Below are positions 11,752-13,207 of a DNA stretch of 64,000 bases, piece after piece (the stretch's first letter is position 1; each line of letters opens with the position of its first letter). This DNA comes from Escherichia coli. Its GTDB lineage: Bacteria > Pseudomonadota > Gammaproteobacteria > Enterobacterales > Enterobacteriaceae. The notes under the pieces were generated by a model that had not been told where the DNA came from, made no database searches, and saw nothing but the letters and a program-made list of their open reading frames with translations. Position numbers and translations under genes: made by a program. The stretch is from assembly GCF_036507355.1 (NCBI RefSeq), contig NZ_AP027877.1, one strand, 5' to 3'.

Positions 11752-12327
11752 ATGGAATACTTTGATATGCGTAAAATGTCGGTAAATCTGTGGCGAAATG
11801 CTGCCGGTGAAACGCGAGAAATTTGCACTTTCCCACCGGCAAAACGTGATTTTTACTGGCGTGCCAGCATTGCATCCATCGCGGCGAATGGGGAGTTTTC
11901 TTTGTTTCCCGGTATGGAAAGGATAGTGACGTTGCTGGAAGGCGGCGAGATGTTCCTTGAAAGCACAGACCGCTTTAACCATACCTTAAAACCGTTACAG
12001 CCTTTTGCCTTTGCGGCGGACCAGGTGGTAAAAGCGAAACTGACGGCAGGGCAGATGTCGATGGATTTCAATATTATGACGCGCCTGGATGTCTGTAAGG
12101 CGAAAGTCAGAATAGCCGAACGTACGTTTACTACCTTTGGCTCACGCGGCGGGGTGGTGTTTGTAATTAACGGGGCGTGGCAACTGGGCGACAAACTGCT
12201 CACTACCGACCAGGGCGCGTGCTGGTTCGATGGCAGGCACACCCTGCGGCTTTTACAACCGCAGGGTAAACTGTTGTTCAGTGAAATCAACTGGCTCGCT
12301 GGTCATTCGCCGGATCAAGTTCAGTAA
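11752..12327 (+). CDS. ves: Ves (HutD-family) protein
   Basis: ORF track 212 aa; start at [14 protein letters not shown] gives 191 aa. Confidence 0.85.
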
Positions 12328-13174
12328 TTTCATAGTTACCGGAAAGCAGCGGCTTACAAAGAATTTTATAACCGTCGTGATCAAACCCGGCGGGTGTCCG
12401 AATTAACGTTGTCGCTTCTTCCAGCGAATTAACCGCCCCCAGCCACAGCCAGTTTTGAATAATATGATATTGAGTCATTTCCGGGTGCTGTTCTTTCAGT
12501 GCCACCGCACCTTGCCAAGGCCAACACACCACCCGCAAACGCTCCAGAGACTGGCGCAAGCGTAGCGCATGTTCCTCATGGCTCTCTTTACCGCAACACG
12601 CCCCAGCGCAACGTTTTAGCGCTGAACGAAAACATGCACGACCGCGACTTAACGGTTCCAGTCCCAACAGGCCATAACAAAGTTTTTGTTCATCAGCGAT
12701 GCTCTGCAATGCTTGCAAAGCTGCGCGCCTATTGGCAAACAGGCCAAACAGGTTGGGGGCTCGTGAAAAATCCACCTCTTTGGCATACACCACATCGACG
12801 CGCTTTTCGTTTAATTGCAGGGCACAGAGCTGGCGATTGCGGCGCAAGCGTTTATTAAACAGTGGCTGTTGTTCTTTGATTAATCGCGCTTCAAGGAGCA
12901 GAGCGCCGATTTCACCGGCGGTGCAGATCCAGCTAATTCGCCGGGATTGCCGTAGCATGGCGGCTTCATCTGGGGTGCGTAAATGAGAAAGCACCCGACT
13001 GCGGATATTAACGCTTTTGCCGATATAGAGCGGCATGGTGTCACTTTCGCCATGAAACAGATACACCCCTGGTCGGGTGGGTAAGTCATTAAGGAATGAA
13101 CGTAAATGTTCGGGATATTCATAAATTGCCGCAGCTTCAAATTCGAGCCGCGGAGAAGTTAAACGCCGTACCAC
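12287..13174 (-). CDS. cho: Excinuclease Cho (UvrC homolog, GIY-YIG)
   Basis: 295-aa ORF with GIY-YIG N-terminus ([27 protein letters not shown]); 3' end overlaps ves by 41 bp. Confidence 0.93.
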
Positions 13175-13187
13175 TGTTAACTCCGAA

Positions 13188-13207
13188 TGCTGGTTATCTA
13201 TCCAGTG
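13188..13207 (-). promoter_or_regulatory. LexA (SOS) box upstream of cho
   Basis: CACTGGATAGATAACCAGCA on the cho strand (CTG-N10-CAG core), 14 bp upstream of the cho ATG. Confidence 0.65.

Follow-up and report, generated by a model that had tools for sequence, protein, structure and literature searches.

The window analysed here, a 64-kb stretch of Escherichia coli DNA, carries the genes ves and cho, which converge and share the ends of their coding sequences as follows.

11752 to 12327, plus strand: ves coding sequence, HutD-family protein Ves, 191 aa; the RefSeq start is the ATG at 11752, and the assignment is by NF008488 and Pfam HutD.
12287 to 13174, minus strand: cho coding sequence, excinuclease Cho, 295 aa, with a GTG start; from the ORF listing, RefSeq and NF007833.
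12287 to 12327, no strand assigned: tail-to-tail coding overlap of 41 bp, comprising the last 13 codons and the stop of each gene; from the ORF listing and the K-12 annotation.

Cho matches the NCBIfam equivalog model NF007833 ("excinuclease Cho") with 579.6 bits against a cut-off of 367, and its residues 1-287 align to profile positions 1-287 of 289. The uvrC model TIGR00194 is matched over profile positions 3-178 of 574 only, i.e., the N-terminal third of UvrC; judged by this profile and by its 295 aa, Cho possesses the N-terminal nuclease region of UvrC and lacks the C-terminal half. A Pfam search of Cho returned no match at E <= 0.001. Ves is covered over its full length (1-191 of 191) by NCBIfam NF008488 with 427.1 bits (cut-off 292), and its residues 8-175 only match Pfam PF05962 (HutD) with 150.2 bits (cut-off 25). 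With all three matches to NF007833, NF008488 and HutD above their cut-offs, the names ves and cho given in a preliminary description of this DNA are correct. Of 5426 complete E. coli genomes, 5423 contain the 2.1 kb around the two genes, at 95-99% identity and with the same annotation, and the gene order in E. coli genomes is spy, ves, cho, nadE and then osmE. In K-12 MG1655, cho lies at 1823515..1824402 on the plus strand and ves at 1824362..1824937 on the minus strand. An Rfam scan of positions 11000-14500 found no RNA families in ves or cho. The locus is the ordinary, familiar ves-cho pair of E. coli.

The 41 bp shared by the two genes contain the stop codons of both. Because the ends of the genes are fixed by these stop codons, which leave the annotation no freedom, the overlap must exist provided that both proteins are produced. 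The overlap in K-12 MG1655 is also 41 bp, and the overlap DNA is identical across the window, K-12 and strain DSM 103246; the tail-to-tail overlap of this length that had been noticed from the letters of the window is thus borne out by the ORF listing and by the K-12 annotation. One could still suspect an annotation artefact, in which one of the frames is in truth shorter or its translation stops before the annotated end, given that the overlap encodes tails that lie beyond the family cores (HutD covers Ves no further than residue 175, and the match to the Cho profile stops at residue 287 of 295). This explanation is highly improbable, however, as each end is set by the first in-frame stop codon, the NCBIfam model of Ves extends to its last residue, the Ves tail GHSPDxVQ is kept in Escherichia and Citrobacter, and the annotations of K-12 and of the other E. 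coli record examined agree on both ends. The Cho tail, by comparison, varies freely. The corresponding 66 kb of K-12 contain eight convergent gene pairs, of which only cho-ves has a coding overlap; the other seven are separated by gaps of 3, 3, 40, 42, 52, 56 and 257 bp.

Comparison of 80 species-representative cho loci showed that ves is adjacent and convergent to cho in 58, located about 1.7-1.8 kb away in 3 and missing from the flank in 19. Among the 58 species with an adjacent ves, the genes overlap by 4-73 bp in 53 and are separated by gaps of 3-48 bp in 5. Nine different overlap lengths were found. Escherichia and Citrobacter share the 41 bp; Enterobacter, Leclercia, Lelliottia and Silvania have 32 or 23 bp; Kosakonia and Phytobacter have 15, 7 or 4 bp; and further loci have 10, 45 and 73 bp. 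In Salmonella and Klebsiella, ves is missing beside cho, and cho converges straight on spy across a spacer of 70-90 bp that is occupied by the spy terminator. Within the group of loci with a 41-bp overlap, the fraction of invariant columns was 0.54 in the overlap versus 0.48 and 0.53 in the flanks, and the overlap DNA hence shows no extra conservation over its flanks that would be a sign of dual constraint. Our reading of these alignments is that the spacer between the genes was lost and that the gene ends have drifted since, in which case the exact figure of 41 bp would have no special meaning. It is the tight tail-to-tail packing, and not its length, that persists across many genera, and this could reflect selection for overlapping transcription; excludon pairs in general have been reported to show higher synteny (ExcludonFinder).

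Upstream of cho, the following elements were located.

13188 to 13207, minus strand: LexA (SOS) box CACTGGATAGATAACCAGCA, an exact match to the cho box of PMC3009722 Table 4, supported also by matrix score and orthologue conservation.
13181 to 13184, minus strand: Shine-Dalgarno sequence GGAG, 6 nt before the GTG; read from the sequence, with GGAG or GAG conserved in orthologues.

The box has a palindromic CTG-N10-CAG core and stands 13 nt before the GTG start of cho, with TTC-GGAG-TTAACA-GTG following it. The bare CTG-N10-CAG pattern has 26 matches in the window, where 12.4 are expected; as this count is too unspecific, a symmetrised leave-one-out weight matrix was used instead, built from the 17 other LexA boxes of Thomassen et al. 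2010 (PMC3009722 Table 4). With this matrix the cho box scores 19.3-19.4 bits, proven boxes span 13.8-28.2 bits, and the cho box ranks first of the 63,981 positions in the window (mean -27, sd 9); the next two sites in the window are the double box of ydjM. All 74 enterobacterial orthologous loci with upstream sequence, from genera that include Escherichia, Salmonella, Citrobacter, Enterobacter, Klebsiella and Kosakonia, have a LexA box 11-16 nt ahead of the start codon. The CTG and CAG are invariant across these loci while the spacer varies, and the start codon is GTG in 72 of the 74.

The identical 20-mer has been listed for the UV-induced cho gene (PMC3009722 Table 4), cho (ydjQ) appears under "known SOS box" in a 2019 review that follows Fernandez de Henestrosa 2000 and Courcelle 2001 (PMC6590174), and the gene has been described as LexA-regulated (PMC3820734). 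UV induction of cho has been reported as 2.4-fold in exponential and 36.6-fold in stationary phase (bioRxiv 2026.06.22.733644), and nalidixic acid induces cho 3.3-fold in Salmonella. Control of cho by the SOS response through exactly CACTGGATAGATAACCAGCA, which the preliminary description had proposed, is accordingly right and already published. The same description had called the box noncanonical with a weak core, and this is wrong: the box is a canonical LexA operator of middle strength, its score lies mid-range among proven boxes, and it is strongly conserved. The multiplicity of CTG-N10-CAG matches in the window, together with two spacer bases that deviate from the alternating TA consensus, could be taken to mean that the 20-mer is a chance palindrome without a regulatory role. 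This possibility is effectively refuted by the best matrix score in 64 kb, by a position that is invariant in the orthologues even though the spacer varies, and by the published induction data and SOS-box listings for this very sequence.

The sequence on the upstream side of the box suggests how LexA would act.

13204 to 13212, minus strand: putative extended -10 element TGTTACACT, which shares its last 4 bases with the start of the LexA box; placed by conservation across loci.
13225 to 13240, minus strand: CCCGCCTCTTTTTTAA, T-tract belonging to the nadE terminator and situated in what would be the -35 region for the putative cho promoter; conserved across genera.

A generic sigma-70 scan found nothing at 9 of 12 matches. 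When the 70-odd loci are aligned on the LexA box, an element of the type TGnTA(C/T)ACT is kept in most of them; the variant TGnTAGACT occurs in three loci (L036, L042 and L063), and the TG is absent in a few. In many genera the nadE T-tract is preceded by a GC hairpin, e.g., GGCGGCGCAAGCCGCC. From this conservation we infer the placement of the -10 element and, with it, that LexA probably occludes the cho promoter.

Scans around 12287-12327 detected no terminator-like site on either strand between or just beyond the stops of cho and ves, and the overlap folds no better than shuffled sequence (z = -0.3 to -0.4). A published Term-seq and bicyclomycin data set (Adams 2021, PMC7815308) lists no RNA 3' ends at the ends of cho or ves. 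A spy-ves terminator lies near 11569-11583. Three features of the cho transcript may bear on its termination or its 3' end.

12240 to 12268, minus strand: GC-rich hairpin of 12 bp that lies within ves, about 19 nt beyond the cho stop, with no U-tract after it; from folding.
13150, minus strand: RNA 3' end reported as Rho-associated, 24 nt inside the ORF of cho (K-12 1823539); Term-seq, PMC7815308, coordinate transferred from K-12.
12905, minus strand: maximum of a Rho termination region reported within cho, about 270 nt in (K-12 1823784); PMC7815308, coordinate transferred from K-12.

The hairpin after cho has a folding energy of -23.9 kcal/mol (z about -5.7 versus simple base-order shuffles) and contains a perfect 9-bp inverted repeat (12241-12249 / 12259-12267); in its 121-nt context z is -3.0, and 0 of 200 shuffles were as stable. 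A shared bidirectional intrinsic terminator was considered and rejected, since there is no hairpin with an A- or T-tract at the gene ends and the hairpin at 12240-12268 is without a U-tract. The hairpin may serve as a stabiliser of the 3' end of cho mRNA. It is confined to Escherichia, and all three substitutions found in it preserve pairing as G-U on the cho strand. These substitutions are synonymous transitions in ves that would give the same result without selection, so that they provide only a hint, and the idea of a selected structure was set aside.

[quoted passage not shown] A hairpin hiding the ribosome-binding site and start of cho was considered as an explanation for the 3' end located 24 nt into the ORF and was rejected: the best fold in the window reaches -8.4 kcal/mol with z = -0.25, and a consensus fold of 41 orthologues shows conserved structure only in the palindrome arms of the LexA box.

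Transcription of ves and the RNA from both strands have been characterized in several published data sets, which add the following features.

11672 to 11699, plus strand: sigma-28 (FliA) promoter of ves, AACGTAAATCACCCGAGTTGCCGATAAC; exact match to the FliA ChIP-seq site of ves (PMC4183435).
12494 to 12514, no strand assigned: 21-bp duplex cut by RNase III, in cho 167-187 nt beyond the ves stop; PMC7373196 Table S3, 2 mismatches to the window.
12167 to 12187, no strand assigned: duplex cut by RNase III, in ves 100-120 nt beyond the cho stop; PMC7373196 Table S3, exact match.
11879 to 11900, no strand assigned: duplex cut by RNase III, in ves about 390-410 nt beyond the cho stop; PMC7373196 Table S3, exact match.

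The ves RNA value was 18 in the wild type and 0 without FliA (Fitzgerald 2014, PMC4183435). Total RNA-seq of the wild type and the RNase III mutants rnc-14 and rnc-38 (Huang 2020, PMC7373196, Table S1c) gave, in this order, 7.9, 6.4 and 5.7 RPM for cho sense RNA, 19.2, 22.0 and 34.6 RPM for cho antisense RNA, 156.7, 173.0 and 244.7 RPM for ves sense RNA and 4.7, 1.8 and 8.6 RPM for ves antisense RNA, while antisense RNA over the neighbouring genes was about 1-3 RPM. From these values, antisense RNA over cho amounts to 2.4-6 fold the cho mRNA. Because a promoter scan detected no promoter-like site on the strand antisense to cho, read-through from ves is the simplest source of this RNA. The duplexes cut by RNase III were captured by p19 as 21/22-bp RNAs in the same study (Table S3), and cho-ves is among the 165 convergent excludons found in at least 50% of 58 MG1655 transcriptomes (ExcludonFinder, NAR 2025, PMC12288877). 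Overlapping transcription of ves and cho is thus real and reaches well beyond the 41 bp of coding overlap. The preliminary description had deduced from the convergence that each full-length mRNA must include the 3' coding end of the other gene; the geometry is right, the read-through is published and the pair is a catalogued excludon.

The further step taken in that description, from overlapping transcripts to antisense interference, does not find support in these data. In its strongest form it would state that convergence without a spacer has been selected because transcribing one gene represses the other, either with ves read-through damping cho in the absence of DNA damage or with SOS-induced cho shutting ves down, through colliding polymerases, cutting of the duplex by RNase III, or both. 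Such a functional excludon would fit the recurrence of the pair as convergent in the transcriptomes, the excess of antisense over sense RNA at cho, the cut duplexes in both gene bodies, the overlap or near-contact of the genes in 58 of 58 species with an adjacent ves, and the absence of a terminator between them. On the other hand, cho sense RNA is not raised in rnc-14 or rnc-38, and ves is little changed in these mutants. Nor is the length of the overlap conserved: five species have gaps, and in the two of them that were folded (L045 and L051) a strong hairpin stands right after the cho stop, e.g., with -25.0 kcal/mol in Pseudescherichia, and whole clades are without ves. Both promoters are weak to moderate, so that collisions should be rare, and much of the uninduced cho transcription is stopped by Rho within the ORF, before the overlap is reached. 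Taken together, we regard selection for mutual repression as unlikely. Because of the comparative drift and the RNase III mutant data, a large regulatory interference between ves and cho is also unlikely, and if there is any interference, the data point to ves acting on cho and not to a reverse or symmetrical effect. The antisense to sense ratio over cho is unusually high compared to the neighbouring genes, and transcriptional collision could matter despite the RNase III result.

The explanation that we favor, and consider quite probable, is that of an ordinary ves-cho locus under canonical LexA control, where the overlap is a by-product with little effect on cho mRNA. In this model, cho, encoding a UvrC-like 3'-incision nuclease of nucleotide excision repair, is held low by a mid-strength LexA operator placed over the putative extended -10 element and right before the ribosome-binding site. 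Its expression is lowered further by the weak GTG start and by Rho-dependent termination inside the ORF, and removal of LexA upon DNA damage induces the gene. The sigma-28 (FliA) promoter drives ves and, because no intrinsic terminator stands between the genes, each transcript runs into the other gene. In uninduced cells, read-through RNA from ves exceeds cho mRNA, and the resulting duplexes are cut by RNase III, probably with hardly any effect on the steady-state level of cho mRNA. Published work documents the control by LexA and by sigma-28, the termination by Rho, the antisense RNA and the duplexes; the present analysis establishes the gene identities and coordinates, the quality and conservation of the box, the drift in overlap length and the missing terminator; the position of the promoter, the way the overlap arose and the smallness of its regulatory effect are our deductions. 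The overlap itself would have arisen from the loss of the spacer and from loosely constrained C-terminal tails, and would probably not represent a tuned regulatory device.

A more speculative extension is that the convergence without a spacer couples two regulons, with sigma-28-driven read-through from ves acting as an extra brake on cho in undamaged motile cells, in addition to the restraint by LexA, the GTG start and Rho termination, and with lineages without ves, such as Salmonella and Klebsiella, relying on tighter LexA boxes instead. LexA box scores average about 22 bits in the genera without ves versus 15-19 bits in Enterobacter and Escherichia, a difference that is confounded by phylogeny, and we consider such a coupling decidedly improbable.

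Public annotation or published literature already covers the gene pair and its overlap, as well as the LexA box and the transcription across both genes. What the locus adds is modest and concerns the stacked restraints on the Cho nuclease, namely LexA, the GTG start, Rho termination in the ORF and abundant antisense RNA from ves. With these restraints, cho-ves would be a convenient and cheap test case for the regulatory consequence of a convergent coding overlap, for which the comparative series, with overlaps of 4 to 73 bp, small gaps with hairpins and clades without ves, would be useful.

Three known systems are close to this locus. The cho box is similar to the ruvAB operator CGCTGGATATCTATCCAGCA, as both are CTG-N10-CAG sequences with an AT-rich spacer and the same CTGGAT...CCAG arms as in the ruvA box, and their matrix scores are alike (19.4 bits for the cho box versus 19.1 for the ruvA box). 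Like other LexA-regulated SOS genes, cho responds to DNA damage with induction, and its box probably lies over the promoter or start region. Nothing essential sets cho apart from these genes; its operator is unusually near the start codon (13 nt) and the start codon is GTG, both of which are conserved across the Enterobacteriaceae. Cho resembles UvrC in that it aligns to the N-terminal part with the 3'-incision catalytic domain (positions 3-178 of 574); unlike UvrC, it has only 295 aa and is without the C-terminal half responsible for 5' incision. Like UvrC, Cho is reported to act with UvrA and UvrB (Moolenaar 2002, as cited in later work). A further difference lies in regulation, as cho is controlled by LexA whereas uvrC is not (PMC3820734). 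Like the convergent excludons in the literature, ves and cho converge, their transcripts overlap and RNase III-cut duplexes have been detected. In contrast to them, it is the coding sequences of ves and cho themselves that overlap and not merely the 3' UTRs, and mutually exclusive expression, the functional hallmark of excludons, is hypothetical for this pair; cho mRNA is unaffected in RNase III mutants.

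In published K-12 data (Adams 2021, PMC7815308), transcription of cho was found to terminate inside the cho ORF in a Rho-dependent manner in uninduced cells. This termination appears in the supplements of that study and is not singled out in its main text. The published sites correspond to the following window positions:

~13150, minus strand: Rho-dependent termination site in cho (K-12 1823539)
~12905, minus strand: Rho-dependent termination site in cho (K-12 1823784)

Rho termination within the cho ORF is a further layer holding Cho low. Two structures lie beyond the cho stop codon in the direction of cho transcription:

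12240-12268, minus strand: strong hairpin of 12 bp (-23.9 kcal/mol), inside the ves coding sequence
11560-11640: spy terminator hairpin; one flank carries a T-run, and the opposite strand reads AAGACCGGCGGTCTT and then AAGTTTTTTG

The first hairpin begins approximately 19 nt 3' of the cho stop, has no U-tract behind it and is limited to Escherichia among the loci compared. Three substitutions found in it among Escherichia retain G-U pairing on the cho-sense strand, and the same substitutions would give A-C mismatches if read on the ves-sense strand. This hairpin could stabilise the 3' end of the cho mRNA; it could also be due to chance. With a T-run on one side and AAGACCGGCGGTCTT and AAGTTTTTTG on the opposite strand, the spy terminator could therefore halt cho-sense read-through once all of ves has been crossed. 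A strong 3' end of spy has been published 123 nt upstream of ves (PMC7815308). The mechanically called ves ORF opens at TTG 11689 (ORF listing; region 11689-11751). Since this codon falls within the ves σ28 promoter (11672-11699), it precedes the probable start of the ves transcript, which supports the RefSeq ATG at 11752 rather than TTG 11689 as the ves start.

Further elements were found in the nadE-cho spacer:

13282-13324, minus strand: Rfam ES036 (CssrF) match, 42.9 bits against a gathering score of 37.6
13328-13364, plus strand: weak Rfam match to naRNA4 (CssrE)
13328-13373: second stretch of the spacer in which these matches lie

Together, the ES036 and naRNA4 matches indicate a REP-type repeat directly upstream of the cho promoter region.

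Over 11500-13600, the top identity among 5426 complete E. coli genomes was 99.2%, and the allele combination of the source strain is therefore absent from those genomes. The strain might be a Shigella or belong to an uncommon lineage. Among the species-representative cho loci (L-numbers), two come from public entries that appear to be wrongly labelled or contaminated. In one, a metagenome-assembled contig named 'Citrobacter sp.' (L003), cho and ves are of the Escherichia type (98% and 100% identity). The other, a contig named 'Chryseobacterium sp. 18061' (L046), has a cho-ves locus of enterobacterial type; the LexA box and the proximal promoter region of this locus match their counterparts in 'Citrobacter sp. 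18056' (L078).

The cho LexA boxes mostly score 21-25 bits in genera without an adjacent ves, i.e., Salmonella, Klebsiella and Raoultella (L007, L010, L059-L075), whereas they score 15-18 bits in Enterobacter-like genera, where cho and ves overlap by 23-32 bp (L020-L054), a contrast that is confounded by phylogeny. The matrix scan also identified, elsewhere in the window:

23644-23681: two side-by-side LexA-box matches upstream of a ydjM homologue, TACTGTACGTATCGACAGTT (15.5 bits) and CACTGTATAAAAATCCTATA (13.1 bits)

These rank second and third among the LexA-matrix sites of the whole window. Their location suggests that they probably correspond to the double SOS box already known for ydjM.
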